From: a virus
Lineage: Duplodnaviria > Heunggongvirae > Uroviricota > Caudoviricetes
IMG/VR virus record: IMGVR_UViG_2579778797_000012
Direction: 5' to 3' (one strand)
Length of the DNA: 33,919 nt
In this document: piece after piece, positions 1 through 27,776 of the stretch
Layout of the letters: every line of letters starts with the position of its first letter
Numbering within the stretch: position 1 is the stretch's first letter
Notes under the pieces: model-generated
Seen by the model: the letters and a program-made list of their open reading frames with translations, nothing else
Told to the model about the DNA's origin: nothing
Databases searched by the model: none
Position numbers and translations under genes: made by a program

Positions 1-182
1 CGGGAGACTTTTTCGGAACGACTGCCGAAGTTCATCCGGCGGAGTTTATCCAGCTGCGCCTGCAGATGGTCTATTTCGCGCTCCCGGTTGCTCAGCTTTT
101 CCTGCAGGGCGTGGATCAGCGCTTCCTGTTCGGCCAGGCGCTGTTTCAGCAGGAAGATGTCGTCAGAAGAGATGTCGTTCAT
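1..182 (-). CDS. IS66-family transposase TnpC, N-terminal fragment (5' partial in window)
   Basis: Minus-strand ATG at 182-180 opens MNDISSDDIFLLKQRLAEQEALIHALQEKLSNREREIDHLQAQLDKLRRMNFG..., a recognisable IS66/ISEc8-type transposase N-terminus. The ORF runs off the window start. Confidence 0.75.
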   Translation of the reverse strand, partial: MNDISSDDIFLLKQRLAEQEALIHALQEKLSNREREIDHLQAQLDKLRRMNFGSRSEKVS

Positions 183-231
183 AAGCCCGTATTTTACCGG
201 GCTTATTCTGTGACAACCAGGATAAAGAGAT

Positions 232-579
232 TTACAGCATGGTCAGGGAGGTCAGCAGCCGCTTGGGCTGTCGCCAGTCGATACCTTCCAGCAGCATCGC
301 CAGCTGCGCCTGTGTAAGGAACACTTTGCCATCACGGGCTGACGGCCAGGCGAAGCGCCCACGCTCCAGCCGTTTGGTCAGGAGGCACAGTCCGTCACCG
401 GTGGACCACAGCAGTTTAACCTGACTGCCGCTGCGGCCCCGGAAGATAAAAACGTGACCTGACATCGGATCGTCTTTCAGCGCCGTCTGTACTTTCGCAG
501 CCAGGCCGTTGAAGCCATTTCTCATATCGGTGATACCGGCAACCAGCCAAATTTTGGTCCCGGAAGGTAACGGGATCAT
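232..579 (-). CDS. IS66-family accessory protein TnpB (Orf2)
   Basis: 115-aa ORF (MIPLPSGTKIWLVAGITDMRNGFNGLAAKVQ...) characteristic of IS66 Orf2. Its start overlaps the tnpA stop (576-579). Confidence 0.8.
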   Translation of the reverse strand: MIPLPSGTKIWLVAGITDMRNGFNGLAAKVQTALKDDPMSGHVFIFRGRSGSQVKLLWSTGDGLCLLTKRLERGRFAWPSARDGKVFLTQAQLAMLLEGIDWRQPKRLLTSLTML

Positions 580-977
580 CGCTTCAGTTCCTGTATCAGC
601 AGAGTCAGGAGCTTTTCGCTGACATTGCCATTGAAGCGGAGCGTCCCGTGCCGGAACGTTACCTCACAGCTGATACTGAGGGTTTTCGGGTCCTCTGCGA
701 GCGATTCTGGCTGTTCGGCAGCTGCATCGAGAGTCACAGGAAGTAGCTGGGGGCTCTCTGAAGAAGGTAATAGCAGCTTTCCCTCGCGCCATTGTTGTCG
801 CCATTTGAACAACAGATTGGCGTTAATGCCATTTTCAAGAGCAAGTTTTGAGATGGATATCCCGGGTTCACAGGAGGCAGCAACGAGCTGCTGTTTAAAT
901 TCGGGAGGATAATTAGGGCAGCCTTTTCGCCTGCCGGGAGTCACATTTTTCTGCATATCTGACACTTTGGTTCCCAC
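576..977 (-). CDS. IS66-family accessory protein TnpA (Orf1); true start may be an internal Met
   Basis: 133-aa ORF with a helix-turn-helix-like segment (ISKLALENGINANLLFKWRQQW), the first gene of the IS66 triad. Confidence 0.7.
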   Translation of the reverse strand: MGTKVSDMQKNVTPGRRKGCPNYPPEFKQQLVAASCEPGISISKLALENGINANLLFKWRQQWREGKLLLPSSESPQLLPVTLDAAAEQPESLAEDPKTLSISCEVTFRHGTLRFNGNVSEKLLTLLIQELKR

Positions 978-1044
978 TACTTATTTGGTGGACACCACTT
1001 TGTCTAATTCGTCAGATTCTGACCAGACGGTTCAGGCTGTACGC

Positions 1045-1452
1045 TTACACTGCTTCAGGAATTTTCCACGCATTTTTTGCCGGAACCACGGCATATTCAC
1101 TGAAACCACCGTCAGCGTGCACACCTAATACAGCCAGTGTCGTACAAACGTTCGGTTTACCTATAGAGCACGGATAGCAATGCCCACAGCTGACCACCGG
1201 ATCGACAGCAACACGTTCACCGACTCTGGCGCTTTCCACGCCTTCACCCACTGCATCAATGACGCCAAAGAATTCATGACCAATGACGCGCGGATATTTC
1301 GCAAAAGGATTATGCCCACGATAAATATGGCTATCTGAACCACAAATTCCGGCAAGTTTCACTTTTACTCGTACTTCACCCGCTGACGGGGTGGGTATTT
1401 CACGTTCGACAATCGCCAGTTGATTCGGTTTTTCAATTAATATGCTTTTCAT
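1045..1452 (-). pseudogene. rspB: rspB (starvation-sensing zinc-dependent dehydrogenase), 3'-truncated by the IS66-family element
   Basis: Translation MKSILIEKPNQLAIVEREIPTPSAGEVRVKVKLAGICGSDSHIYRGHNPF...KNAWKIPEAV matches the first ~135 residues of E. coli RspB (339 aa in K-12, from memory). The frame stops inside the IS terminus. Start taken at the internal Met (MKSIL). Confidence 0.8.
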
Positions 1453-1463
1453 TATCTTACTCC

Positions 1464-2677
1464 TTACCAGTTCCACAGCGTGCCATCTTCCAGACGTGCG
1501 ACTGGTAGATAAGCAGGTTCATAGGGATATTTCGCCGCCAGCTTTTCATCGAATTCGATACCAAGACCCGGTTTGTCTCCCGGATGCATATAGCCGTTAT
1601 CGAAAGTCCAGTTGTGCGGGAAGACTTCGAGCATTTGTTCGGAATAACCCATGTATTCCTGGACACCGAAATTGGGGACCCACAGATCAAAGTGCAGCGC
1701 CGCAGCCATGCAGACTGGTGACAAATCGGAAGGACCGTGTGAGCCAGTACGTACCTGATACAGCGAAGCAAAATCGGCAATCCGGCGCATACCGGTAATT
1801 CCGCCTGCATGGGTCAGCGTGGTGCGGATATAATCGATGAGTTGCTCTTCAATCAGTTGTTTGCAGTCCCAGATGCTGTTGAAGACTTCACCACTGCGAT
1901 GGGTGTGACGGTATGTTGGCGAATGAGACGGAAGCATTCCTGGTTTTCCGCAGGCGTCGGGTCTTCCATCCAGAACATGCGATAATCTTCAATGCTTTTA
2001 CCAAAGCGCGCCGCTTCAATAGGCGTTAAGCGATGGTGCAAGTCATGCAGCAGATGTTCATTAAAACCAAACTTGTTACGTACCGCGTCAAACAATTTCG
2101 GCATGAAATCGAGGTATTTCTCCGTCGACCACAGCTGCTCTTCCGGCCACTGTCCTTTGGTTGCGGGTTCATAAGCCAGACCTTTACCTTTCGACATGCC
2201 GTAGGTGGTTTTCATACCTGGGATTCCGCACTGCACGCGGATGGCTTTGAATCCCAGCTCCTGATGACGGGCATAATCATCCAGAGCTTCATCAATACTG
2301 TGACCGGTGGTATGGCAATAAACCATCACCCCTTCACGAGACGCGCCGCCGAGTAACTGGTAAAGCGGCATGTTGGCAGCTTTGGCTTTAATATCCCACA
2401 GCGCCATATCAACCGCTGAAATGGCCGACATCGTAACCGGACCGCGACGCCAGTAAGCACCTTTATAGAAAAACTGCCAGATATCTTCGATACGGTGCGC
2501 ATCGCGACCAATAAGCTGCGGACAAAGGTGATCCTGCAAATAAGAGGCCACGGAAAGCTCACGTCCATTGAGGGTGGCATCCCCAAGGCCCGTAATACCG
2601 TCCTCAGTGGTGATTTTTAATGTGACGAAATTACGCCCCGGACAGGTAACAAAAACTTCAGCCTTTACGATCTTCAT
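1464..2677 (-). pseudogene. rspA: rspA (mannonate/galactonate dehydratase-family enolase-superfamily protein) with an apparent 1-bp frameshift near 1890-1893
   Basis: Two overlapping minus-strand ORFs (1853..2710 and 1464..1937) together cover RspA ([30 protein letters not shown]... then ...[21 protein letters not shown]...[13 protein letters not shown]). The frame changes after ...TPIAV. The span is 1214 nt where 1215 is expected. Confidence 0.75.
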
Positions 2678-2882
2678 GTTCGATTCCTTGCATCGCTTGT
2701 CGTGATGCATGAAATCTACGCAACTGAGCCACTACCATACAAGTATGAAGATCGAAAAAAGCCGGAGTGATCACAAAAAAAGGCGTATATTTGCGCTGTG
2801 AATGGTTGACAAAAGATGAAATAGAATACCTTTTGTCAGCTGACACTTCCTCGTATCTTATTGATAAAATGGATTTATGTTC

Positions 2883-3209
2883 CTACGTGCGCCCCCAGCC
2901 CGCAACAATGATCAACATGCCGCAAAGCGCAATCAACGCACCCGTCCAGTCATAAAGAGTCAGTTTCACGCCATCCACAACGCGCAGCCACATCAACGCC
3001 GTGCAGACATAAACGCCACCATAAGCCGCGTAAACACGCCCACTCGCCGCAGGATGCAACGTTAACAACCAGACAAACAGCGCCAGTGAAATCCCCGCCG
3101 GAAGCAACAGCCAGATACTGGCGTTTCGTTTTAACCACAACCAGGGCAGAAAGCATCCAATAATTTCACACAGCGCAGTAGCAAAAAATAGTAACGTTGT
3201 TTTAATCAT
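2883..3209 (-). CDS. ynfA: YnfA, UPF0060-family inner-membrane protein
   Basis: [33 protein letters not shown]..., 108 aa from the internal Met. Hydrophobic four-helix pattern. Conserved K-12 neighbourhood (rspA-ynfA-ynfB-speG). Confidence 0.85.
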
Positions 3210-5604: not shown

Positions 5605-8031
5605 ATGTCCAAAAATGAACGAATGGTGGGCATCAGCCGCAGAACACTCGTTAAATCTACCGCGATAGGTTCTCTGGCGCTGGCTGCAGGCGGTTTTTCT
5701 TTGCCGTTTACCCTGCGCAGTGCAGCAGCAGCGGTACAACAGGCCCGCGAAAAAGTGGTCTGGGGTGCCTGTTCCGTCAACTGTGGTAGCCGCTGTGCAC
5801 TTCGTCTACATGTTAAAGATAATGAAGTGACCTGGGTGGAAACTGACAATACCGGCAGCGATGAGTACGGCAACCATCAGGTACGCGCCTGTTTGCGCGG
5901 TCGCTCCATCCGCCGGCGTATTAATCATCCCGATCGCTTGAATTACCCAATGAAACGCGTGGGTAAACGCGGTGAAGGCAAATTCGAACGGATTAGCTGG
6001 GATGAAGCCCTGGATACTATCGCCAGTAGCCTGAAAAAAACCGTCGAACAATATGGCAATGAGGCTGTATATATTCAGTACTCTTCGGGGATTGTTGGCG
6101 GCAATATGACCCGCTCTTCGCCATCAGCCTCGGCGGTCAAACGCCTGATGAACTGCTACGGCGGTTCACTCAATCAGTATGGCTCCTACAGCACCGCGCA
6201 AATTTCCTGTGCCATGCCCTACACCTACGGCAGTAATGATGGCAACAGCACCACGGATATTGAAAACAGCAAGCTGGTCGTGATGTTTGGTAACAACCCG
6301 GCAGAAACCCGCATGAGCGGCGGTGGCATCACTTATCTTCTTGAAAAAGCGCGCGAGAAATCGAACGCCAAAATGATTGTTATCGATCCGCGATATACCG
6401 ATACGGCTGCTGGTCGTGAAGATGAATGGCTTCCTATTCGCCCGGGCACCGATGCCGCGCTGGTTGCGGGGATTGCCTGGGTATTGATTAACGAAAATCT
6501 CGTTGATCAACCTTTTCTCGATAAATACTGCGTCGGCTATGACGAAAAAACCTTACCCGCAGATGCACCCAAAAATGGTCACTATAAAGCCTATATTCTT
6601 GGTGAAGGTGACGATAAAACAGCGAAAACGCCGCAGTGGGCTTCGCAAATTACCGGTATCCCGGAGGACCGTATCATCAAACTGGCGCGTGAAATTGGCA
6701 CAGCAAAACCCGCTTATATCTGCCAGGGCTGGGGGCCACAACGCCAGGCAAACGGCGAACTGACTGCACGCGCTATTGCTATGTTACCTATTTTGACGGG
6801 CAATGTCGGCATCAGCGGCGGAAATAGTGGCGCGCGTGAATCGACCTATACCATTACCATAGAACGCCTGCCGGTGCTGGATAATCCGGTCAAAACGTCA
6901 ATCTCCTGCTTCAGCTGGACAGATGCTATCGATCATGGTCCGCAAATGACGGCAATCCGCGACGGCGTCCGCGGCAAAGATAAACTGGATGTGCCCATTA
7001 AGTTCATCTGGAACTACGCGGGAAATACCCTCGTTAATCAGCATTCTGACATCAACAAAACGCATGAAATTCTGCAGGACGAATCGAAATGCGAAATGAT
7101 TGTGGTCATCGAAAACTTTATGACCTCATCGGCAAAATATGCCGACATTCTGCTGCCAGACCTGATGACCGTTGAGCAGGAAGATATTATTCCTAACGAC
7201 TACGCCGGTAACATGGGATATCTCATTTTCCTCCAGCCTGTCACCAGCGAAAAATTCGAACGCAAACCGATTTACTGGATCCTGAGTGAAGTCGCGAAAC
7301 GTCTTGGACCTGACGTCTATCAAAAGTTCACAGAAGGTCGCACGCAGGAACAATGGTTACAACATCTGTACGCCAAAATGCTTGCCAAAGATCCGGCGTT
7401 ACCGTCTTACGACGAACTGAAAAAAATGGGTATCTATAAGCGTAAAGATCCCAATGGCCATTTTGTCGCCTACAAAGCATTTCGTGACGACCCCGAGGCA
7501 AATCCACTTAAAACGCCTTCCGGTAAGATTGAAATTTATTCCAGCAGGCTGGCGGAAATTGCCCGTACCTGGGAACTGGAAAAAGATGAAGTGATAAGCC
7601 CATTGCCAGTTTATGCCTCAACCTTTGAAGGCTGGAACTCCCCTGAACGTAGAACCTTCCCACTGCAACTGTTTGGTTTCCATTACAAATCCCGTACTCA
7701 CTCGACCTACGGCAATATTGATCTCCTGAAGGCTGCCTGCCGTCAGGAGGTGTGGATCAACCCTATAGATGCGCAGAAACGTGGGATTGCCAACGGCGAT
7801 ATGGTGCGGGTGTTTAACCATCGTGGCGAAGTTCGGCTACCAGCCAAAGTAACACCACGTATTCTCCCTGGAGTTAGCGCTATGGGCCAGGGAGCCTGGC
7901 ACGAGGCCAATATGTCTGGCGATAAAATCGACCATGGCGGCTGTGTGAATACGCTAACCACTCTGCGCCCTTCACCACTGGCGAAGGGAAACCCGCAGCA
8001 CACTAATCTGGTCGAGATCGAAAAAATATAA
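5605..8031 (+). CDS. ynfE: YnfE, Tat-exported DMSO-reductase-family molybdoenzyme catalytic subunit (putative selenate reductase)
   Basis: 808-aa ORF with a twin-arginine signal (SRRTLVKSTAIGSLALAAG), a Cys-rich N-terminal cluster (CSVNCGSRC) and full-length similarity to DmsA-type subunits. Confidence 0.9.
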   Translation: MSKNERMVGISRRTLVKSTAIGSLALAAGGFSLPFTLRSAAAAVQQAREKVVWGACSVNCGSRCALRLHVKDNEVTWVETDNTGSDEYGNHQVRACLRGRSIRRRINHPDRLNYPMKRVGKRGEGKFERISWDEALDTIASSLKKTVEQYGNEAVYIQYSSGIVGGNMTRSSPSASAVKRLMNCYGGSLNQYGSYSTAQISCAMPYTYGSNDGNSTTDIENSKLVVMFGNNPAETRMSGGGITYLLEKAREKSNAKMIVIDPRYTDTAAGREDEWLPIRPGTDAALVAGIAWVLINENLVDQPFLDKYCVGYDEKTLPADAPKNGHYKAYILGEGDDKTAKTPQWASQITGIPEDRIIKLAREIGTAKPAYICQGWGPQRQANGELTARAIAMLPILTGNVGISGGNSGARESTYTITIERLPVLDNPVKTSISCFSWTDAIDHGPQMTAIRDGVRGKDKLDVPIKFIWNYAGNTLVNQHSDINKTHEILQDESKCEMIVVIENFMTSSAKYADILLPDLMTVEQEDIIPNDYAGNMGYLIFLQPVTSEKFERKPIYWILSEVAKRLGPDVYQKFTEGRTQEQWLQHLYAKMLAKDPALPSYDELKKMGIYKRKDPNGHFVAYKAFRDDPEANPLKTPSGKIEIYSSRLAEIARTWELEKDEVISPLPVYASTFEGWNSPERRTFPLQLFGFHYKSRTHSTYGNIDLLKAACRQEVWINPIDAQKRGIANGDMVRVFNHRGEVRLPAKVTPRILPGVSAMGQGAWHEANMSGDKIDHGGCVNTLTTLRPSPLAKGNPQHTNLVEIEKI

Positions 8032-8091
8032 CCCACGACAACCATAAATTCTGGCATGACATTTTGTTTGAAAAGCAATAAGTGAGTAATG

Positions 8092-10515
8092 ATGAAAATC
8101 CATACCACAGAGGCGCTCATGAAGGCTGAAATCAGCCGTAGAAGTCTGATGAAAACCTCCGCACTTGGCAGTCTTGCGCTGGCAAGCAGTGCTTTCACTC
8201 TGCCATTTTCCCAAATGGTCCGGGCGGCAGAGGCTCCGGTAGAAGAGAAAGCGGTCTGGAGTTCCTGCACCGTTAACTGCGGGAGCCGCTGTCTGTTACG
8301 TTTGCATGTGAAAGATGACACCGTGTACTGGGTGGAGTCTGATACGACAGGTGACGACGTCTACGGTAATCATCAGGTTCGAGCGTGTTTACGCGGGCGC
8401 TCTATCCGCCGACGGATGAATCATCCTGATAGGTTGAAATATCCCATGAAGCGCGTCGGCAAGCGCGGTGAAGGTAAATTTGAACGGATAAGTTGGGACG
8501 AAGCCCTGGATACCATCAGTGATAATCTTCGGCGGATCCTGAAAGATTACGGCAATGAGGCTGTACATGTCCTGTACGGAACAGGCGTAGATGGCGGAAA
8601 CATCACCAACTCAAACGTCCCGTACCGTCTGATGAACTCTTGCGGTGGTTTTCTCAGTCGCTATGGCAGCTACAGTACCGCACAGATCAGTGCCGCAATG
8701 AGTTATATGTTCGGTGCCAATGATGGCAACAGCCCGGATGATATCGCCAATACGAAACTGGTCGTTATGTTCGGAAATAACCCGGCAGAAACGCGGATGA
8801 GCGGCGGTGGTGTCACTTACTACGTCGAGCAAGCCCGCGAACGTTCAAACGCACGCATGATCGTCATCGATCCACGTTATAACGACACTGCTGCCGGGCG
8901 TGAAGATGAATGGCTGCCCATTCGCCCTGGCACCGATGGCGCACTGGCCTGTGCGATTGCCTGGGTACTGATTACTGAAAACATGGTCGATCAGCCATTT
9001 CTCGACAAATATTGTGTTGGTTACGATGAAAAAACGCTGCCCGCCAACGCACCACGTAACGCGCATTATAAAGCCTATATTCTGGGCGAAGGGCCTGACG
9101 GCATAGCTAAAACGCCGGAATGGGCAGCAAAAATCACCAGCATCCCGGCAGAAAAAATTATCCAGTTGGCACGAGAGATCGGTTCAGCAAAACCTGCTTA
9201 TATTTGTCAGGGTTGGGGGCCACAACGACATTCCAACGGCGAGCAAACATCCCGCGCTATTGCCATGCTTTCCGTTCTCACCGGCAACGTCGGCATAAAC
9301 GGCGGCAACTCAGGCGTACGCGAAGGTAGCTGGGATCTGGGGGTAGAATGGTTCCCGATGCTCGAGAATCCTGTTAAAACGCAGATTTCCGTCTTTACAT
9401 GGACAGATGCCATCGACCATGGTACGGAAATGACCGCGACCCGTGATGGTGTTCGTGGAAAAGAAAAACTGGATGTCCCCATCAAGTTTTTATGGTGCTA
9501 CGCCAGTAACACATTGATCAATCAACATGGCGACATCAATCACACCCATGAGGTGCTTCAGGATGACAGCAAGTGCGAGATGATTGTTGGCATTGACCAC
9601 TTCATGACGGCCTCGGCTAAGTATTGCGATATCCTGTTGCCCGACCTGATGCCAACAGAGCAAGAAGACCTTATCTCTCATGAATCTGCAGGGAATATGG
9701 GCTATGTGATCCTCGCCCAACCCGCAACCTCAGCAAAATTTGAACGCAAACCCATCTACTGGATGCTGAGTGAAGTCGCCAAACGCTTAGGACCAGACGT
9801 TTATCAAACCTTTACTGAAGGTCGCAGTCAGCATGAATGGATCAAATATCTCCATGCGAAAACGAAGGAACGTAACCCTGAGATGCCCGACTACGAGGAG
9901 ATGAAAACGACCGGGATCTTTAAGAAAAAATGCCCGGAAGAACACTACGTCGCTTTCCGCGCATTCCGTGAAGATCCACAGGCAAACCCGTTGAAAACAC
10001 CTTCGGGGAAAATCGAAATTTATTCTGAACGACTGGCGAAGATTGCAGATACCTGGGAATTGAAAAAAGATGAAATTATTCATCCCCTTCCTGCGTATAC
10101 CCCAGGTTTTGATGGCTGGGACGATCCCCTGCGGAAAACCTATCCACTGCAGTTAACGGGCTTCCATTACAAAGCGCGTACCCACTCCAGCTACGGCAAT
10201 ATTGATGTGTTACAGCAGGCCTGCCCACAAGAGGTGTGGATCAACCCCATTGATGCTCAGGCACGCGGTATCCGTCATGGCGATACCGTGCGGGTATTTA
10301 ACAATAATGGAGAAATGCTGATTGCCGCAAAAGTGACTCCGCGTATTCTGCCTGGCGTTACCGCCATCGGGCAAGGTGCGTGGCTTAAAGCGGATATGTT
10401 TGGTGACCGGGTCGATCACGGCGGCAGTATCAATATTCTGACCTCTCACCGCCCTTCACCGCTGGCAAAGGGAAACCCGTCGCACAGCAATCTTGTCCAG
10501 ATCGAAAAGGTTTAA
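8092..10515 (+). CDS. ynfF: YnfF, Tat-exported DMSO-reductase-family molybdoenzyme catalytic subunit (paralog of ynfE)
   Basis: 807 aa from the second Met. Twin-arginine signal (SRRSLMKTSALGSLALA), CTVNCGSRC cluster, collinear with YnfE throughout. Confidence 0.9.
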   Translation: MKIHTTEALMKAEISRRSLMKTSALGSLALASSAFTLPFSQMVRAAEAPVEEKAVWSSCTVNCGSRCLLRLHVKDDTVYWVESDTTGDDVYGNHQVRACLRGRSIRRRMNHPDRLKYPMKRVGKRGEGKFERISWDEALDTISDNLRRILKDYGNEAVHVLYGTGVDGGNITNSNVPYRLMNSCGGFLSRYGSYSTAQISAAMSYMFGANDGNSPDDIANTKLVVMFGNNPAETRMSGGGVTYYVEQARERSNARMIVIDPRYNDTAAGREDEWLPIRPGTDGALACAIAWVLITENMVDQPFLDKYCVGYDEKTLPANAPRNAHYKAYILGEGPDGIAKTPEWAAKITSIPAEKIIQLAREIGSAKPAYICQGWGPQRHSNGEQTSRAIAMLSVLTGNVGINGGNSGVREGSWDLGVEWFPMLENPVKTQISVFTWTDAIDHGTEMTATRDGVRGKEKLDVPIKFLWCYASNTLINQHGDINHTHEVLQDDSKCEMIVGIDHFMTASAKYCDILLPDLMPTEQEDLISHESAGNMGYVILAQPATSAKFERKPIYWMLSEVAKRLGPDVYQTFTEGRSQHEWIKYLHAKTKERNPEMPDYEEMKTTGIFKKKCPEEHYVAFRAFREDPQANPLKTPSGKIEIYSERLAKIADTWELKKDEIIHPLPAYTPGFDGWDDPLRKTYPLQLTGFHYKARTHSSYGNIDVLQQACPQEVWINPIDAQARGIRHGDTVRVFNNNGEMLIAAKVTPRILPGVTAIGQGAWLKADMFGDRVDHGGSINILTSHRPSPLAKGNPSHSNLVQIEKV

Positions 10516-10525
10516 GGAGTAGCCC

Positions 10526-10639
10526 ATGACCACACAATATGGATTTTTTATCGATTCCAGCCGCTGTACTGGCTGTAAAACCTGCGAACTGGCGTGCAAA
10601 GATTTTAAAGTTGGTTACGTATCGTTTAAAATCAATTAG
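10526..10639 (+). pseudogene. ynfG: ynfG (4Fe-4S ferredoxin-type subunit), 5' fragment only; similarity ends about 10609
   Basis: MTTQYGFFIDSSRCTGCKTCELACKDFK matches the YnfG/DmsB N-terminus. The frame then reads VGYVSFKIN-stop instead of the expected DLGPEVSFRRIYEY..., and no remainder of ynfG is present downstream in the window. Confidence 0.85.
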
Positions 10640-10683
10640 ATAGCCCGTCATTTCTGCGCTCACACGTCCCAACATTGAAAAAC

Positions 10684-10717
10684 ATGCAAAGCTTTGTAAG
10701 CCGATGCAAAGCTTTGT
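10684..10717. promoter_or_regulatory. Two copies of ATGCAAAGCTTTGT (10684-10697, 10704-10717), each containing the 10-bp palindrome CAAAGCTTTG; candidate protein-binding sites
   Basis: Exact 14-bp direct repeat spaced 20 bp start to start, in non-coding DNA about 75 bp inside the ynfG junction. Confidence 0.35.
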
Positions 10718-11054
10718 GTGTCTCACTTTTGTCCCAATACCAATCCGAATCCACCCTTTGTCATCATTGAGAAATGGCAAGGAAGAAAAGGATGTTACTG
10801 CACGATTTGACAAATCCGCCAGAGCTATCGCATACTGATCGCACTGAACAAATAAGCGGTCTCCGCACCCGATAGCTTTGCGGCTTTTTTATGCCTGCAA
10901 TTTGGCATAGTTACATCCGTACAAAGGTCGGGTGGAGAGGCGTAATACAACACCCGCAAGGGGAATATGCCCAGAGCTTCTTATTTGGCTCAGTTGACAC
11001 CCGACCGCCAGCTACTAACTGGCGGTTATAAACTAAACAAATAAGGAGGTCATC

Positions 11055-11339
11055 ATGACCAGTCAACTCATCCCCGTATTCAACGGTTCTATCTCAAACC
11101 AAGCAGCCCTTCTATGCAATGCTCGCAATCTACACGCTTTCCTTGGGGTTGGTAAACGCTTTGCATCGTGGATAACAGAACGTATTGCTGAATATGGTTT
11201 CGTTGAAAATCAGGACTATATGATTGCTTCCCAAATTCGGGAAGCAAAAGGTAGAGGCGGTCACAACCGCAAGGAATACCACCTCACCCTCGACACAGCC
11301 AAAGAGCTTGCGATGGTTGACGACTGCGTCCAATACTGA
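11055..11339 (+). CDS. Short AntA/AntB-type antirepressor-domain protein (94 aa), paralog of the next gene
   Basis: MTSQLIPVFNGSISNQAALLCNARNLHAFLGVGKRFASWITERIAEYGFVENQDY... resembles the AntA N-terminal domain. Strong RBS (AAGGAGG, 11043-11049). The C-terminus (YHLTLDTAKELAMV) is shared with the downstream paralog. Confidence 0.5.
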   Translation: MTSQLIPVFNGSISNQAALLCNARNLHAFLGVGKRFASWITERIAEYGFVENQDYMIASQIREAKGRGGHNRKEYHLTLDTAKELAMVDDCVQY

Positions 11340-11588
11340 CTATACTCCGCGCCGAGGCCTCGAAAACCTCCCAAAAGCGGATTAAACCAACCCCGTCAGT
11401 GTTGGATTTTTTATGCCTGTTATTCAGTGATAGCACAGTGTGCGGTCACATCCCCGATCAATGTCGGGAGGGCGACGAATACAACACCCGCAAGGGGAAT
11501 AAGTCCGCGGTATCTTTTGGGCCGTTTCGAGCCTCCCGGCACCACATCTTGTGGTGGCATTTCTCGAAAAAAGCCAAAGGAGGTCATC

Positions 11589-12218
11589 ATGACCACTCAA
11601 CTCATCCCTGTGTTTGAAGGTACAATCTCAAATGAACCTACGCTTCTGGTGAACGCGCGTGATTTGCATGGATTTTTAGAGGTAGGTAAAGATTTTTCTA
11701 ACTGGATACGGGCCAGGCTAAACGAGTATGGATTCGTAGAAAATTTAGACTACATTCTATTTTCGCCAAATTTGGCGAAAACTCCAGGCCGCCGCCGCAA
11801 GGATTACCACCTCACCCTCGACACAGCCAAAGAGCTTGCGATGGTTGAACGTAACGAAAAAGGCCGCCAGATACGCCGCTACTTCATCGAGTGCGAAAAG
11901 AAACTTCGCAACATTCAGCCAGTACAAGCAGAACCACAGCCGCAATTCACAGCCGAGGAAATAATCCTCCTCTGCTACATGCAGCTCTGGATGGAAAAAG
12001 CCCAGGACCTTAGCAAGCAGCTGTACCCCATAATGAAAGAGCTGAACTCCTCATACACGAACAAGCTGTATGACATTGCGTTTGAGACTATCTACATGGT
12101 GACGAAGAACAGAGATGTGCTACTGAGAGAGGCGGCACGGCTTGACCAGTCGAGTTTCGTAGTTCAGCGGGCCAGACCAATGCTGAAAAGCCTGCGGGCA
12201 AGACAATTTGAATTCTGA
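11589..12218 (+). CDS. AntA/AntB-type antirepressor-domain protein (209 aa from the RBS-supported start)
   Basis: MTTQLIPVFEGTISNEPTLLVNARDLHGFLEVGKDFSNWIRARLNEYGFVENLDY... RBS AAAGGAGG directly upstream of the ATG at 11589. The track ORF starting at 11427 is an RBS-less upstream extension. Confidence 0.55.
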   Translation: MTTQLIPVFEGTISNEPTLLVNARDLHGFLEVGKDFSNWIRARLNEYGFVENLDYILFSPNLAKTPGRRRKDYHLTLDTAKELAMVERNEKGRQIRRYFIECEKKLRNIQPVQAEPQPQFTAEEIILLCYMQLWMEKAQDLSKQLYPIMKELNSSYTNKLYDIAFETIYMVTKNRDVLLREAARLDQSSFVVQRARPMLKSLRARQFEF

Positions 12219-12414: not shown

Positions 12415-13641
12415 ATGCCGGTAACTATAACAAAAATCAGAACTGGAGAAGATGTTTTGTCAGCAGCCATTCACCGCATTGAATGGTTGTTTGAAACATT
12501 CTCTTCTGTATGTTTATCTTTTTCTGGCGGTAAAGATTCCACTGTACTTTTCCATCTTGTAGCCGAAGTGGCCTACAGGAAGAAACGTCGTTTTTCTGTA
12601 TTGTTCATTGACTGGGAAGCCCAGTATCAATGCACCATTGATCATATACAGAAGATGCGGATGATGTACCAAGATGTAACAGATACCTTTTACTGGGTTG
12701 CACTTCCCCTGACGACAGTAAATGGTGTCTCGCAGTTTCAGCCTGAGTGGATATGCTGGGAGCCCGGTGTAGAGTGGGTTCGACAGCCACCGGAAGATGC
12801 TATTACTGATATGGCGTATTTCCCCTTTTACCGCTACGCCATGACTTTTGAAGAATTTGTCCCAGCTTTTTCTTCCTGGTTCGCAAGTAACCAATGTAGC
12901 GTGGCAATACTGACTGGAGTCCGCGCGGATGAATCTCTTAACAGATTTATGGGACTGGTTTCCCAACGAAAACTGAGATATGCAGATGATAAACCCTGGA
13001 CCACGGCGTCACCTGAAGGTTTTTACTACACCATGTATCCGCTGTATGACTGGAAAACCAACGATATCTGGGTATATAACGCTAAAACCTGTGCAATCTA
13101 CAATCCTCTGTATGATTTGATGTACCGTGCAGGCATTCCTCTACATAATATGCGTGTCTGTGAGCCTTTTGGCCCGGAACAGCGTAAGGGACTATGGCTT
13201 TATCATGTTCTGGAGCCAGAAACTTGGGCACGGATGTGTGAACGAGTATCTGGTGCTGCCAGTGGGGCTCTTTATGCCAATGAAAGCGGGGCCTATTTTG
13301 CCCTGCGTAAACGGATGTCAAAACCATCCCATCATACATGGCGCAGCTATGCGTTCTTCCTGCTGGACGTAATGCCGGAAAGAACGGCTGAACACTACCG
13401 CAACAAGATAGCAGTCTACCTGCGCTGGTATCAGAACCGGGGATTCCCGGATGATATCCCGGATGAACAGGAAAATGATCTGGGCTGCCGGGATGTTCCC
13501 TCCTGGCGACGTATTTGTAAGACTCTCATAAAGAATGATTTCTGGTGCCGAACGCTCTCCTTCAGCCCCAACAAACCCCGGCACTATGAACGTTACCTGC
13601 AGCGTATGAATGAAAGGAGGAAGGAATGGGGAATTCTGTGA
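12415..13641 (+). CDS. ibrA: PAPS-reductase-like (PP-loop ATP pyrophosphatase fold) protein, IbrA/YbdN-like
   Basis: 408-aa ORF with the PP-loop motif SFSGGKDS near the N-terminus and a long C-terminal extension. Overlaps the downstream ParB-like gene by 16 nt. Gene symbol assigned by family resemblance only. Confidence 0.6.
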   Translation: MPVTITKIRTGEDVLSAAIHRIEWLFETFSSVCLSFSGGKDSTVLFHLVAEVAYRKKRRFSVLFIDWEAQYQCTIDHIQKMRMMYQDVTDTFYWVALPLTTVNGVSQFQPEWICWEPGVEWVRQPPEDAITDMAYFPFYRYAMTFEEFVPAFSSWFASNQCSVAILTGVRADESLNRFMGLVSQRKLRYADDKPWTTASPEGFYYTMYPLYDWKTNDIWVYNAKTCAIYNPLYDLMYRAGIPLHNMRVCEPFGPEQRKGLWLYHVLEPETWARMCERVSGAASGALYANESGAYFALRKRMSKPSHHTWRSYAFFLLDVMPERTAEHYRNKIAVYLRWYQNRGFPDDIPDEQENDLGCRDVPSWRRICKTLIKNDFWCRTLSFSPNKPRHYERYLQRMNERRKEWGIL

Positions 13642-14270
13642 CACCAGAGGTGGAGGTGCTGAGCAAGATGATTCGACAGTACTTCAGTCAGGAACAATCT
13701 GAAGAGAAAACCATACAGGCCCTGAACCATCTCCGCTGCGTACTCCATGAGATCAGCCCCTTTGCTCAAGAACCAGTGGACTGTGTGCTGTGGGTAAAAG
13801 CGGATGAAATTGTCGCTAACGATTATAATCCCAATGTCATGGCCCCAAGCGAAAAAAAATTACTGAAACAATCTCTGGAAAAAGACGGTTTTACTCAACC
13901 AATTGTTGTTTCGGAAGAAACAAGCCATTACCTGGTGGTGGATGGTTTTCATAGGCAGTTACTAGGTAGAAGAACAGTTACTGGAAAACGCCTGAAAGGC
14001 TGGCTACCAGTAACCTGTATTAATCCAGACCGAAAGGGACAAACCTCACGTATTGCCGCGACTATCCGACATAACAGAGCCAGGGGGAAACACCAGATAA
14101 CCTCAATGTCTGATATTGTCAGAGATCTTTCACGTCTTGGCTGGACTGATGAACGTATCGGAACAGAACTGGGGATGGACCAGGATGAAGTTCTGAGGTT
14201 AAAGCAGATTAGCGGGCTAACGGAGTTATTTCAGCAGGCAGATTTCAGCCCTGCATGGACTGTTACATAA
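13626..14270 (+). CDS. ibrB: ParB/sulfiredoxin-fold (ParB-like nuclease domain) protein, IbrB/YbdM-like
   Basis: 214-aa ORF with a DGFHR motif (VVDGFHRQLLG) typical of ParB/Srx-fold proteins. Strong RBS AGGAGG at 13615-13620. Translationally coupled to the upstream gene. Confidence 0.6.
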   Translation: MGNSVTPEVEVLSKMIRQYFSQEQSEEKTIQALNHLRCVLHEISPFAQEPVDCVLWVKADEIVANDYNPNVMAPSEKKLLKQSLEKDGFTQPIVVSEETSHYLVVDGFHRQLLGRRTVTGKRLKGWLPVTCINPDRKGQTSRIAATIRHNRARGKHQITSMSDIVRDLSRLGWTDERIGTELGMDQDEVLRLKQISGLTELFQQADFSPAWTVT

Positions 14271-14358
14271 AGTTAGGTTAGGCCTGTGGAGCCGGGGAAT
14301 CGGAATTAAACATCTTCCCTCCCCGGTAAATACAAATAAGGGCTGAACATCATCCCGA

Positions 14359-14883
14359 CTACCTCAGATCACCTAATAATATATCAAGATTATTTTGCGC
14401 ATTAATGCTATTCGCCATTACTGTTGCTGCTTCTGGCAACTTTCCAAGAGCAATAAATATATTCTTAAGGCTGATTGGAATTGATGAACCATGCGGATCG
14501 CGCCACTCACCGCAAATTCTGTGAGTTTCATCACAAAGCCTGAACGCATCCCAACCTCCATATTGACCAAAAATTATGTCCATTGACTCTATTTCTGCGG
14601 GCGATAACTCCCCCAGCTCATCAACAGAAGAAAATGTACGCCACATTTCAACCTTATGATCCGCTACATCAGATATCCATGATTCCCACGGACTGTACTC
14701 GTTTTCACTTCCATCCTTAACCAAAGAATATGTCTGCGATAAAACGGGTCCTTTGTTCATAGAGAAATAATGATCACCACTAATGGGAAAACCATACAAC
14801 TCCATTGCTTTGCGGTCAGAGAGATACATCAGCTTAATGAAACGCATAGATCCGCCATGTTTTTTCAGCAAATACGCTGCCAT
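14359..14883 (-). CDS. DUF4065 (Panacea/SocA-like) domain protein
   Basis: 174-aa ORF. FIKLMYLSDRKAMELYGFPISGDHYFSMNKGPVLSQTY fits the conserved KLqKLLY...GPV core of DUF4065 antitoxin-like proteins (from memory of the family profile). No strong RBS at the annotated start. Confidence 0.5.
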   Translation of the reverse strand: MAAYLLKKHGGSMRFIKLMYLSDRKAMELYGFPISGDHYFSMNKGPVLSQTYSLVKDGSENEYSPWESWISDVADHKVEMWRTFSSVDELGELSPAEIESMDIIFGQYGGWDAFRLCDETHRICGEWRDPHGSSIPISLKNIFIALGKLPEAATVMANSINAQNNLDILLGDLR

Positions 14884-15033: not shown

Positions 15034-18000
15034 TTAATCCACTCCCACTTTTTTGTTGTACTCGCGGTTAAAGCGATCCACGGCAACCTTCATATCCCGC
15101 TCTACCGATTTCACCATCGCCGCCTGCTGCGCCAGACTGAGAGAACTGTCGGCATAAATGGCATCGCGCTGTTTGCGCAAATCCTTCAGTCTCTTCCGGG
15201 TATCCTGCATAAGCCCGTTCATCAACAATTTTCCGTTGTTCTCGTCAATGAACGCCGTTCTTTCTGCACCGGTCAGACTCTTCAGCTCTGCGTGATACTG
15301 CGCAACCTCTGTCATCCGGTCGTACATCTTCTGCTGGTCTGCATACGGCATCACCTCACCCGAAATTTTCCCCAGGAAGGGCACCTGCTGCTCCGGTATA
15401 TCAATACCGTTCAGCGATTTCACCGCCGCATCTGTGGTTTTGGAAATGAAGCGCCCTGTCCCTCCGGAGATATAGTCAATCCAGAATTTCAGCGATTCCG
15501 GTGTGATATCCACCGCGCCGGGACGATACTGGCTGCCACCTGAGAACGCATTCAGCCAGGATGCAAACGCCTTGTACGCCTCAGGCGTTGAACGTCTGCC
15601 CAGCTGGCTGTCCGGTTTCGGTGTGCCAAATGGCATGTTCTCCTGGTAAATCTGCGCCCCCATGAAGTTTTCATTCATGGCAAGGTTCGCAAACGGACGC
15701 AGAATGGTCGGCGCTGCATTTTTCAGCAATGCCCCGGACAGTGTTTCCGACGTTTCACTGCCCACAGGACTGAATGCCCCCAGGATACCACCGACAACAT
15801 TACCGGCAGCACGTGAAGCAGTCAGGTCGCCCGCTGCCACACCTTCAGCAGTATGCCCGAGCAGGAAGAAAACGTTGTACCCGTAAGGCAGAGGAATACT
15901 CCAGTACTCTCCGGCCTTGCCCCCGAACACCGATTTCATAATGACGAGGTTACGCTCTTTCACATGAGACGGCACCTTGTCATACCAGTTAACCCCGTCA
16001 TCATCCTCCCCCGCAACACTGCGGTTAAGCGAGCCAAGCAGATAACCCGCTCCCACAGCTGCAAGCGCGATTTTCTGCGGTACATTGAGATTCTTCCAGC
16101 GAAGGCGCTCCGGTAACGGCCCGTCGCCATTAAGATGTCCGAGCGTTCTCACCAGGTTTGCGGTCCCCTGAATGCTGGCGTTGGCAAACATATACAGCGA
16201 GTTCATCAGCGCTCCCTGCTCACCACGACGGTTAAAGTTCACCGTCATGTTTTTGGCAAGAGATGCCGCCTGCTGGCGTGACAAACCGGCATCACGGGCG
16301 TGTTTATAGGCAGAAAGACGCAGAGCGTTTTCAACCGCGCCGTTGGCATCCTCGACCAGGTTCAGGAACGAATGCCATGCACCGATACTCTGGCCTTTCC
16401 ATCCTCCCTTCGCCAGCGATACAAGGCGATCCATTTCCTTCTGCTGGCCTTCAAGGTCACCCATGTTAAACCAGCCGGTTTTACCTCCGTCCTCAACAAA
16501 CTCTTTCCACACCTTCTGCCACTGCGCACCGTTGCCCGTGAGGGTTTTACCACGCAGACTGGCGTATACGGCAGACATGGCAGACCGGCTGTCTTTCACC
16601 ACAGCCAGGGCGGATAAGTTATCCAGCCCTTTCAGTTTACCGTCGCTCCTTCCCTGCTCCGCCTTCAGGTTCATCACCGCCGTCTGCACGTCACGGATGA
16701 AGTTACTGACCAGGAATTCCGGGTTATACGACGTGTTCACCGTTGCCAGGAAGCGGTTAACTTTCCCCAGCGTGCGGATTACGGCGTTACTGGTTTCCGG
16801 TCCCATATTCTTCATCGCACGCATCAGGCGCGGATCATGGAGTTTGATGTAGTACGTTTTGCCGTTCTTTTTGGTGGTGAAGTACCGGTCTGCCATCATT
16901 GCCATCGGTACAGGACGTTCGACAACTTCGTGACGGGTTTCACCGGTTTCCGGAACAACACGCTCTGCAATCGCACGCATGGTGTCCGGTCGCTCATTGG
17001 TGAATACCTGCCAGTAATCCTTGTCTGGATTATCCTGTACCAGTTTCAGGAAGGCGTTACCTACTTCATTTTTGCGATTGCGGATCAGCGATTCGCTCAA
17101 GTCCTGTATCGCCTGAGTGGACGGAGACTGTGCGCGGGATGCACGCCCCATGGCCTGCCTGCTTTCACGTCCGCCGATAGTGAAGCCTTTACCTGTACGG
17201 GGCAGTGACACCACACCGTCAACATCCTGGCCTTTCAGAGGAACGTAGTAACGGTAGGCGTTCTGCCAGGCATCCACCACACCGCTCTCTTCCAGTCCGG
17301 CCTCACGGATAAGCTCACGGCGACGGGCCAGCATATCGTCAACAATCCCTGCCAGACGGTCATACTGTGCCTGTTTGCCACTGTTACGCACACGCTGCAT
17401 GATTTCCGCCGCTTCCGCGTTGGTCATCCCCGAACCGCCGTCCGGCATTTTCGGGTTGATTTTCGCGATATGCGCGTTACGTTCCGGCGCGTGACGGGCG
17501 TAGAGGTACTCATCCAGATCGGCCTGCGCAATTTTGTAGTCCGCCAGTAATTTAGCCAGCGGCTGAACATAGCGCTCCTTCATCACGTTCAGGTCGTTTT
17601 CCGCCTTCCCGTGGAAGAGTTCTTCCGCCATATAAGCGTTGTTACTGTCGTCTATTTTTCCGCCAGTTTTACGGATATTCTCCTGAACAGCTTTCAGCAC
17701 CTGGAATTTATCCTGCATCTGGCGCACAAAACGCGATGCAATTGTCTCTTCCGGTGTCAGACTGCTGGTACGGGAGTAATGCGGCCCCTTGCGAATATCT
17801 TCAGGATAGAGTATTTTATCCGCAGAGCCGCGATAAGAATGTTCCCCTTTGGGCAATTGGAGTCCTCTGTGCAGAAGGTTATCGCGGCTTAATTTTTCTC
17901 TCCGGTACAACGTTAACCCGGTCATTTCCATACTCTTCAGTTTTTTTCCATTTTCTGTACCGTAAACAGAAGCTACCTTGTTGATTTCCAGACGCGACCG

Positions 18001-21000
18001 GACAGCCTTCATGTGTACCGCTGACACCACCGGATCACCATTTTTATCCACGGCATCAAGCAGCATCACAACCGCATTTCTTTCTGTCGCTGAGTGGTAA
18101 ATTGCATCCGGATCGTGCATCAGTTCCGGTAGTCTCTCGATAACATCCATCGGCACCACATGTTTCACACCATTGGTGGCCTTACGCACAGTGTCGCGGG
18201 AGATAACCAGCGGCAAATCTGGTGCGCCAAGGTGACGCAATACCGGCGGCGTACGCCCGATGTTTACCGTTAAATCCGTTGAGCGCAGAGACTTCATCAT
18301 TCTGGCAAGGTCATCACGATAACGCTCGCCCTCACCTTCCGGCACTTTGAACGGATCAGGCTTACCGCTACGGGAGTACTGAGACGATGCGCCAGCGCCA
18401 TCCTCACGCGGCGTGTAACCTTCCCGCACACGCTGGCCTAACGTGCGAATAGTTTCGCGAACAAGTCTGATATCGTTCAGCTCTGTCGGCTTCAGTAACC
18501 CCGTGCGACGCAGTACCCCTTTGACCAGGGCAACAACACGCTCCCACGCCGCCACAAATTTATTCGGCTGTTTCTCCGCCATATGTGCCAGAAATTCACC
18601 CGCCTGCACTTCCGGTGATTCCTTACCATAAGACGCATCAACCTTACGCCAGGCTTCACGGATGGTGGCGTTATCACTGTCACGGGTTTTCAGCACGGTC
18701 TTAATAATCGTCTGATATTCCGCTGGCGTGACTACATGCTCCATTGCATGGTGGATAATCTCGTGACGCAGCTTCTCGCGAACGGTCCGCCCGTCAGGAA
18801 TGTTATCCGCCACCAGGACAATTTCACGTTTATCCGGACGATAGAACGCATGCCCCCTGCCGTAACCGTCGAACGATTCACCCGCCAGCGCTTCAGCCTC
18901 TTTCTGTGACTTCACCACGCGGACCTTCAGGTCACTGTCCTTAATGCCACTCATCACGCCACGGGCAACCGCTTCAACCTGCGGGACCGGGCTGCCTTTG
19001 GCTTCCGCACTGCGGTTAACATCCGAAATGAGATTGCCTTCAGGTGTGCGGGTCACGCCCTTACGGGAATAAAACGCAACGCCCTTGTCCGTCTCACGGG
19101 TTTTCAGCGTACTGAACAGGTGATCGAATGCATCACGAATACCGCCATCCAGTTCCGCATTCGTCGGATAAGCCCAGGTGTTATCTGTGTTGTGCTCAGG
19201 TGCCTTACGGATATTGACCAGATAATCATTCTCCACGCCAGCCGTACGCGCTTTATCCTGAACATAACGCTCAAAGGCACGCGCCGCCATTTCAACATCC
19301 GTTGACCAGTACGGTTTTGAGCGCACCTCATCGAGAAGCGCTGAACGACGCGGCATGTCACTGCTGTTGATCGCTTTCATCACGCCTTTAAACGCGTCGT
19401 AAACCTCCTGACGTACCGGATATTCCGCATCAACATATCTGCCGTCTTTAAATACGCGCCCGGCACGCTGTGCTTCCGTCATATAGTCGCCACCTGACGT
19501 GATCTTCCCGTCAGTGGAAACATCATAACGACCAAAATAATTATCCAGTGAATGGAACCATTCGTGGGCCAGCGCCCCCGGTCCGTTACCTTTTGTCAGG
19601 TTGATTGCCACCTCACCCGGCTCATAGTGTGCCGCCGCCTTACCCTTACCACGGGCACCAAAAGCAAGCCCAAGACGACCGTTCAGAGAAAGCGCTTTTG
19701 TCGGCACGTTCAGCACATCAGCCAGGTCATGCAGCGAGTCATAAGCCCGGTTCAAATCAGCCTGACGACGCGGACCTTCCACATAATTACCAAACTGCAC
19801 ACCACGAAAACCAAACGCATCACTGAACTGCTCCGGCGAAACATCCCCCTTGCGGCGTTCTGGTCCGGTACGATCGCGGTTGGTGGCGTTACGCTGCTCC
19901 TCACGCGAAATCTCCCGCATCTCCTTCACATGACGAACAAGCTCATCACGATGTGAATCAATGTACTTACGCGCATCACTGGCTGACTTAAAGCCACCTC
20001 TCACCCGCATTTTGTTTTTGCCATAAGCGATAAAAATATCGCCACTGCGGGTATTCCGGTAAACGTCAAAGCGGATTTTGTCATCCGGTGACGGTGCCGT
20101 TTTTTCATCTCCTTTCGCCTGTGACTTTTCCTCCAGCTCTGCAAACCAGACTTTCGCCTTTGTCAGTAATTCATCCCTGCTTTCCGAGAAAAAGAGGTTA
20201 GTCCCCTTATTGTCCTTATTGCGCAGTGAATAAAGTTTCTGTGGCGGATCGTAACGCTTCCCTCCTGCCGCCTGATACACACCCGATACCACCCGATAAG
20301 CAGAAGCCTTGTCCATCTGTGAGGGTGGCAGAGTGCGTAACAGTTGCCAGGTATCCGCGTAACGGGAGGGCATTCTGCCTTCCATCCATTCTGCGAGGCG
20401 TTTCGCGCTGACCGTTCCGTTCAGCATTTCCGATACACTGTGTCGTACTTTTTTTACGCTCTCCCCCCAGCCAGCCGTATTGTGTTTCGTCTTCGCCGGA
20501 ATATCGCTACGATACAGCGCTATCATTGCCAGGGTGTCAGCATCAGCCCCTTCGCTCGCCAGTTTTGCGTAGTCCGGTTTCGGGAACAGTTTGCTCAGCG
20601 GCTGCGTGGCATAATCCCTGTCTTCCAGCGTTTTACCCAGTGTTTCAGCAAGCTGTGCATAACGGTGTTTTGCCGCGCCCTTAATTTCTTCACCAAAGTC
20701 TTCAATTTTCGCACCACGCGCCTGCTGGTGAGTGCTCGGTTTATCTACCGGCATCGGCACCTCAGTATCCGGAACATCGGTTATGGTCTGGCGATTATCC
20801 CCGGTCTGTCTGCGTGCTTCTGCCTGCTGTGCCAGTTCCGGAAGGGAGTCACGAACCATACGAGGGAGTGATTCAGGCTGTGGCATATCAACCCCACGCT
20901 GACTTTCAGGTGCAGGAAGTCCTTCACGCACTGGTGCTGTGGCGTTCTGCTCATCCGGTGACGGCAGACCACGACGAACCGGTTCGCCCTCCAGTATTTC

Positions 21001-26617: not shown

Positions 26618-26995
26618 ATCGGCTGAACCTCAGCAACCAGTTGACGGGGACTTTCGTCCCCGTCGCGGTTTTCCTACTGCTTACACTGTAAGAACGCCGC
26701 AAACTCCGCTCCCCACAAATTCAGCCGGAACTCACACAACGAGCCGTGTAACATCCAGATGGTGAAGATTACCGTCATACAAATTGTGACGGTGATGAGC
26801 GATTTTTGCGACATAACGCTTGTCTCCTGAGTGGAGAGGCGCTAACCTACTACTTGTGAAGGTTGTACGGTCAGGGCCTCGGGTTAACATTAAAGTTGAC
26901 TCGGGGCCTTTCCACATCAGGCCTTCAGGTTCACCTTCCAGCCATCAGCCGAAAGGCACCCGCGCATAATCTACGATTTTTGCCCTGCACGGGCA

Positions 26996-27044: not shown

Positions 27045-27776
27045 TCAGAATTTCAGGCCAATACCTACAACAACCCCGCTCGTGCGCCAGTCACCAGATC
27101 CGGAGCTTTCATACGCGACATCCATAGCAACACTTTCATTCAGGTTAAATTGTGCACCAGCAGCCCATGCAAGTGCTGTTTTTTTCGTACTGTTGCTTTC
27201 AGAAAATCCACCGGTACTGTTAATGTTGTCCTTAATTTTCAGGTCAGCGGTAACTTTAGCTACGCCCATACCAGCCATTGCATACACACTGAGGTATTCG
27301 TTAAACCGCCACGAAGGACCCGCTAACAGGCTCCAGTAATTCGCTCTGATATCTGTTCTTCCTGAAGCTGCCGGATTTTTAACCTCTCTGGATTCATCTC
27401 CTGGGTTAATATCAATAAATGCCTGCGCATTAGTCATAGAACGCGCCCATGTAAAAGATGTTATAACACCAATCTCATCCGTTATCTCATAACGATACCT
27501 GATGCTCATCCCCTGAGGAGATTTGCCTTTGCCATCATGCCCCCGGACAGAAGCATCTGCATATTCGCCTGAATTGAAGTAGTGTCTGTTTGTAAAACGG
27601 TTAAAAGTATCAAGATTATAAAGACTTAAATCCTTAACAAAATTGTTCAGTCCAGAGAGCTGAAGATGAGCGTATCCGAAAGAAACTGTACTGTCACCTT
27701 GTGCTGCACAGGCAGGGGCTGCTACAAAACTCATCACAAAAGTTGTGCACGCAAAAATAATTCTGGTATGTTTCAT
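27045..27776 (-). CDS. lom: Lom/Ail/PagC-family outer-membrane beta-barrel protein
   Basis: Signal peptide (MKHTRIIFACTTFVMSFVAAPACAAQG) and a C-terminal ...YESSGSGDWRTSGVVVGIGLKF closely resembling the lambda Lom / Ail-family terminal strand. Confidence 0.75.
   Translation of the reverse strand: MKHTRIIFACTTFVMSFVAAPACAAQGDSTVSFGYAHLQLSGLNNFVKDLSLYNLDTFNRFTNRHYFNSGEYADASVRGHDGKGKSPQGMSIRYRYEITDEIGVITSFTWARSMTNAQAFIDINPGDESREVKNPAASGRTDIRANYWSLLAGPSWRFNEYLSVYAMAGMGVAKVTADLKIKDNINSTGGFSESNSTKKTALAWAAGAQFNLNESVAMDVAYESSGSGDWRTSGVVVGIGLKF

Follow-up and report, generated by a model that had tools for sequence, protein, structure and literature searches.

We conclude that the seven bases at positions 10604-10610 of the window, the 33,919-nt stretch of DNA analyzed here, are very probably the attL core of a phiPOC-J13-type prophage of the Sepvirinae, site-specifically integrated in ynfG. 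The host genes are undisturbed up to this point. The first gene of the ynfEFGH-dmsD operon, ynfE (5605-8031, +), identified as an ORF and by the annotation at the colinear position of E. coli G6/7, and ynfF (8089-10515, +), read from the ATG at 8089, with the PGAP-annotated start corresponding to 8092, are both intact ORFs of 808 aa, as the preliminary description had held for this part of the operon. The ynfG start codon follows at 10526, 10 nt past the ynfF stop, and nt 1-85 of K-12 MG1655 ynfG are identical base for base (100%) to window 10526-10610, with only random similarity beyond 10610. When the K-12 ynfE'-ynfF-ynfG-ynfH-dmsD-clcB locus was used as a BLAST query against the whole window, a single HSP was returned, in which positions 1-3075 of the locus align at 100% with window 7536-10610 and end exactly at 10610. 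No ynfG 3' part, ynfH or dmsD was found in the window by this search, in line with the earlier claim that these genes are missing up to the window end. The preliminary description had also tied its reading to a coincidence of the junction with the loss of ynfG identity, and the alignment with K-12 places both exactly at 10610.

The break leaves a truncated ynfG fusion ORF (10526-10639, +), which consists of 28 YnfG codons, nine phage-derived codons (VGYVSFKIN) and a TAG stop at 10637-10639; its 37-aa product reads MTTQYGFFIDSSRCTGCKTCELACKDFK followed by VGYVSFKIN. This bears out the proposal that ynfG similarity is lost after about codon 28 and is followed by a short foreign tail and a stop. 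Similarity had been thought to end at about 10609; the break site stands, but the exact base has to be moved, as nucleotide identity reaches 10610, one base past the K28 codon. In place of an intact ynfG with all four Cys groups, the window therefore holds codons 1-28 with Cys group I only, and the counterpart of this ORF in G6/7 carries the PGAP label "4Fe-4S binding protein, incomplete, missing C-terminus". A tRNA scan detected no tRNA in the window, so the element is not a tRNA-targeted island.

The crossover region of attL is a 7-bp common core, TTTAAAG (10604-10610, +), which is equivalent to ynfG nt 79-85. We aligned attB from K-12, attL from the window, attR from G6/7 and attP from the IMG/VR contig IMGVR_UViG_2579778634_000010 (L008). 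In this four-way alignment TTTAAAG is the sole block common to all four sites, and on both sides of it the very next base already differs between attB and attP. Seven base pairs is the overlap length typical of lambda-type tyrosine integrases. The core in attB is flanked, over 7 bp on each side, by the imperfect inverted repeat CAAAGAT / ATCTTGG, an arrangement suggestive of candidate core-type sites. The attP sequence was predicted by joining the left arm of the G6/7 attR, the core and the right arm from the window, giving 601 nt, and an exact-pattern scan of IMG/VR located it as one contiguous sequence (601/601) in L008. The same contig is 100% identical to window 10604-11959. A contiguous attP is present in no record of the phage collection, because the relevant records are linearised at att. 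Since the predicted attP does exist as a contiguous sequence in IMG/VR, all four sites of a reciprocal exchange are accounted for and, judged from their alignment, attB, attL, attR and attP fit integrase-mediated exchange within TTTAAAG.

Related genomes provide a view of the far end of the element. Several complete E. coli genomes match window 10300-11100 (801 nt) with 100% identity, G6/7 (801/801) among them. In G6/7, attL is followed by a 62-kb prophage whose last gene encodes a 388-aa site-specific integrase, and the ynfG 3' part starts 53 nt after the integrase gene, followed by ynfH, dmsD and clcB. At this attR, identity to K-12 ynfG begins at nt 79, with 528/528 matches over nt 91-618. 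The G6/7 integrase is identical at 387/388 residues to the POCJ13 integrase and at 388/388 to that of PhiR5_2. It had been suggested that the recombinase lies at the far end; in the relatives the 388-aa integrase does adjoin the ynfG 3' part, and the window's own far end lies beyond 33919. The other main proposal, an integration junction inside ynfG with phage cargo up to the window end, proves correct for all the related genomes that were inspected. Across the prophage, the window has no identical counterpart among complete RefSeq E. coli genomes, the best of which reaches 97% coverage and 96.8% identity, so the far end could differ, although we infer that in the window's own genome it would be the same as in these relatives.

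Together this suggests the following sequence of events. A temperate, 933W-like short-tailed lambdoid phage (Sepvirinae) would have entered ynfG by means of its tyrosine integrase, through exchange between attP and the host site at the identical 7-bp TTTAAAG core. Integration would have fused ynfG codons 1-28 to nine phage codons at attL, and would have displaced ynfG nt 79-618, ynfH and dmsD to the other side of a prophage of about 60 kb, beside the integrase gene at attR and past the window end. Past 33919 the prophage would be predicted to go on for about 35-40 kb, with head, lysis, Q, replication, immunity and recombination genes. We would expect the far attR to read GAGCAACAAC TTTAAAG ATCTTGGCC and to follow the gene for the 388-aa integrase, with ynfG nt 86-618, ynfH and dmsD coming next. 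Precise excision would restore ynfG.

To place the junction among sequenced strains, we used a 200-nt attL query made up of 100 nt of host sequence (the ynfF end and the ynfG start) and 100 nt of phage sequence. The attL junction occurs once per genome in 82 of 5,426 complete E. coli genomes, and the int-attR-ynfG' junction, likewise once per genome, in 89 of 5,426, O104:H4 outbreak strains included. Eight genomes were compared by coordinates. The distance from attL to attR is 59-62 kb in seven of them (G1/2, G8, SCU-104, EC2, SW071611, JNEC-KY204 and NCTC9112) and 31 kb in LZHX12, where the element is presumably a decayed copy of the prophage.

A different reading of the junction is that it marks a replacement or a deletion, with the phage DNA a remnant whose far end was deleted along with the ynfG 3' part, ynfH and dmsD, in which case these genes would be lost as opposed to displaced. 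The three are indeed missing from the window, which ends 23.3 kb into the prophage, decay at the ynfG site does occur, as the roughly 31 kb between attL and attR in LZHX12 illustrate, and IS elements are found in related prophages, such as IS1 in G6/7. A deletion nevertheless seems quite unlikely to us, given that the junction falls exactly at the integrase core, that attL and attR are both present in 8/8 of the genomes compared by coordinates, that the genome-wide counts of the two junctions are similar (82 for attL vs 89 for attR), and that the visible 23.3 kb are colinear with full-length phages. The preliminary description had spoken of "integration or replacement". Of the two, integration is upheld; in the relatives the missing genes lie about 60 kb downstream, so replacement is not needed.

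The ynfG fragment could instead be a duplicated remnant, with a full-length ynfG elsewhere in the genome. This is extremely unlikely, as the fragment, 100% identical to K-12, immediately follows ynfF, where ynfG belongs, and the 200-nt attL query has a single match in each of the 5,318 genomes that it matches at all. The BLAST search with the K-12 locus likewise revealed no second ynfG copy or duplicated remnant in the window, and the ynfG 5' region occurs once per genome among the E. coli genomes of the collection with a match, so the duplication envisaged in the preliminary description finds no support. We also give almost no weight to an assembly chimera, in which host and phage sequence were mis-joined: 82 complete genomes that were assembled independently have the identical junction, and this junction coincides with the experimentally mapped phiPOC-J13 site. 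We thus return to site-specific integration of a phiPOC-J13-type prophage.

The ynfG site has been described before. By PCR, every stx1a-positive S. flexneri isolate was shown to carry phiPOC-J13 in S1742 (Gray et al. 2014, PMC4193171), and new phiPOC-J13 lysogens carry the phage in S1742 in strain 2457T and in ynfG in E. coli MG1655 (PMC4193171). Phage 75/02 Stx uses the same site as phiPOC-J13 (PMC5447701), and the Stx1a prophage of E. coli RM10410 is in ynfG (PMC10562709). The integration site of phiPOC-J13, a Stx1a phage classified as Diegovirus POCJ13 in the Sepvirinae, is the same as that of the window to the nucleotide. The ends of the POCJ13 GenBank record are exactly window 10611 (reverse-complemented) and the base before CTTTAAAG, which are the junction positions. 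The two elements also share the att-proximal arm and the overall order of late and accessory genes; they differ in cargo, with ead/Ea22-like and DUF551-type genes in POCJ13 at the place that is taken in the window by an ibrA/ibrB pair and a Panacea-domain gene. PhiR5_2 (PV340546.1, with K-12 MG1655 given as the host) has IbrA, IbrB and Lom in common with the window and a record that is linearised at the same att site, but leaves about 8% of the phage part of the window uncovered. A non-Stx ynfG prophage of the O104:H4 outbreak strains has the same int-attR-ynfG' junction at 99.8% identity. The 75/02 Stx, RM10410 and O104:H4 prophages differ from the window in cargo and immunity modules, as expected for mosaic lambdoid phages. 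No stx gene is annotated in PhiR5_2 or in the G6/7 prophage, the closest relatives of the window, and the window's own Q-stx-lysis region lies beyond 33919. The system parallels the Int/att system of phage lambda, in that a tyrosine integrase gene lies beside attP, the identical core is short (7 bp, like the lambda overlap), and attL and attR are reciprocal. Lambda and 933W differ from the ynfG prophage in integrase and target; 933W, which inserts in wrbA, has the phage type in common with it. The site, the phage type and the integrase have thus all been described already, and the window is one more instance.

The visible 23.3 kb of the prophage (10611-33919) comprise the att-proximal accessory region and the distal tail genes of a 933W-like short-tailed lambdoid phage (Sepvirinae). 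The best phage match to window 10610-33919 is Escherichia phage PhiR5_2, at 92% coverage and 96.8% identity, and POCJ13, 75/02 Stx and dozens of Stx1- or Stx2-converting phages match at about 76-77% coverage and about 91% identity. Both Sepvirinae phages and E. coli prophages are colinear with the phage part of the window, whose Pfam content fits this assignment. Nearest to the core is a short AntA-domain ORF of 94 aa (11055-11339, +; Pfam AntA, E = 1.8e-25), which by module alignment is a truncated paralogue of the next gene and whose G6/7 counterpart is annotated as a pseudogene. That next gene encodes an antirepressor with AntA N-terminal and P22_AR_C domains by Pfam (11589-12218, +). An ibr pair follows (12415-14270, +), with an ibrA-like gene at 12415-13641 (PAPS reductase and DUF3440 domains by Pfam) and an ibrB-like gene at 13626-14270; IbrA and IbrB are annotated in PhiR5_2, and an "IbrB-like domain-containing protein" in G6/7. 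The IbrB-like partner is ParB-like and gave no Pfam match. The gene after the pair, on the opposite strand, encodes a Panacea (SocA-like antitoxin) domain protein (14359-14883, -; Pfam SocA_Panacea, E = 2.5e-19), and the module 12415-14883 is present in PhiR5_2 and absent from POCJ13 at this place.

A single ORF (15034-23397, -) takes up a quarter of the window and encodes a large polyvalent protein of 2,787 aa with LPD5, LPD1, MuF_C and LPD38 domains by Pfam. This is the segment most divergent from related prophages: compared with G6/7, window 18347-23019 has about 94% identity, and about 17863-18346 has no alignment of at least 300 nt. Beyond it, Pfam identified an Ail/Lom outer-membrane protein (27045-27776, -), a tail tip fiber protein (28782-30050, -) and a YadA-anchor, trimeric autotransporter-like protein (32594-33706, -). 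A 46-aa Hok/Gef-like ORF, MSQKSLITVTICMTVIFTIWMLHGSLCEFRLNLWGAEFAAFLQCKQ, lies between phage genes at 26674-26814 (-), and the G6/7 annotation assigns its homologue to the Hok/Gef family; no Rfam match to a sok/hok RNA reached the gathering score at this ORF.

Mobile elements are also found on the other side of the ynf genes. The left end of the window (1-1047) is an IS66-family (ISEc8-like) element in rspB, with tnpA- and tnpB-type ORFs on the minus strand, so that rspB is the second host gene disrupted by a mobile element in these 34 kb. G6/7 has the rspB 3' part at this position and is colinear with the window from 1048 only. In that genome, a Qin-like defective prophage (dicA, dicB, dicC, exonuclease, xis, int) ends beside rspB, and the 10-kb host segment rspBA-ynfABCD-speG-ynfEF is sandwiched between two prophages.

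Between the core and the first antirepressor-type ORF lies the non-coding phage arm of attL (10611-11054, +), which is the P' arm of attP and contains repeats, a hairpin and an element of the sRNA-Xcc1 family. Its first 120 nt, judged by eye, match one end of the POCJ13 record once this end is reverse-complemented. Two exact direct repeats of ATGCAAAGCTTTGT are located at 10684-10697 and 10704-10717 (+), 20 bp apart and 74-107 bp from the core, and are also able to pair as a long hairpin; a related ATGCAAAG is present in the other attP arm, at the int 3' end. In a shuffle test of ATGCAAAG-type repeats, at least three matches were obtained in 9 of 100 shuffles, so enrichment is not significant. 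The ATGCAAAGCTTTGT repeats are candidate arm-type integrase binding sites that the shuffle test does not distinguish from chance. At about 10816-10893 (+), folding predicts a strong hairpin with a U run after it (-30.8 kcal/mol, z = -3.3). In the circular phage, the int stop codon would be about 200-280 nt upstream of this hairpin, with attP in between. We speculate that the hairpin resembles, in position, the lambda sib/tI retroregulator, which integration cuts off from int.

The same arm holds one of two full-length Rfam matches to sRNA-Xcc1 (RF02221), at 10926-11014 and 11463-11548 (+), which scored 69.1 and 73.4 bits, where the gathering score is 53. Each element is about 40 nt upstream of an AntA-domain antirepressor ORF (starting at 11055 and 11589), and the two leader-plus-antA modules are diverged tandem paralogues in which the core of the RNA element is conserved. 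A paper on APSE phage places the same RNA family upstream of an ORF6N-domain gene. From its placement, the element may not be a free sRNA but a leader that acts in cis on phage antirepressor-type genes.

What integration means for the host enzyme can be predicted from the position of the break. The electron-transfer subunit YnfG is proposed to connect catalytic YnfE with YnfH, which oxidises quinol, and the ynf operon ends with dmsD (PMC5203670). K-12 YnfG has 16 Cys in four groups, of which group I (C14, C17, C20 and C24) alone lies left of the junction, with groups II-IV at attR. Integration would therefore part the first Cys group of this four-cluster ferredoxin subunit from the other three, and would cut ynfH and dmsD off from the ynfE promoter by about 60 kb. 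Because the Fe-S subunit YnfG is split, we expect the cell to have no working YnfE/F-G-H selenate/DMSO-type reductase as long as the prophage stays integrated. Both ends were inspected for phage sequence that could make up for the missing part of ynfG, and this possibility was rejected: the attL frame stops after nine foreign codons, and at attR the phage provides 15 nt in frame (GTG GTG AGC AAC AAC) before ynfG codon 27, with no Cys motif. An N-terminally truncated ORF of 184 aa with a GTG start at attR is a PGAP-annotated CDS in O104:H4. It has no Cys group I, and its product is predicted to be unable to bind the first cluster.

Read-through from the co-oriented integrase gene into ynfH-dmsD is conceivable. 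DmsD is also needed for assembly of DMSO reductase. Cross-complementation between paralogous systems was reportedly observed by Lubitz and Weiner in 2003, and DmsB and DmsC might in part take over from YnfG and YnfH. It has further to be considered whether the ynfG prophage acts as a reversible genetic switch ("active lysogeny"), in which precise excision at TTTAAAG would make ynfG whole again and bring ynfH-dmsD back under the ynfE promoter, which is induced anaerobically, and transcription leaving int could keep dmsD expressed in the lysogen. Such a switch can be conceived, as excision would leave no scar and int points the same way as the genes downstream of it, yet we regard it as very unlikely. 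With the ynfG insertion taken as a conventional phiPOC-J13-type prophage, a lysogen is predicted to lack YnfG-dependent selenate/DMSO-type reductase activity, and its expression of ynfH and dmsD may be altered.

For annotation, 10526-10639 is best described as the 5' ynfG remnant at attL of a phiPOC-J13-type prophage and not as the gene of a small 4Fe-4S protein. Since it serves Stx1a phages of both Shigella and E. coli, the ynfG site matters for epidemiology; it is occupied in about 1.5% of complete E. coli genomes, and occupancy could affect the acquisition of Stx1a phages.
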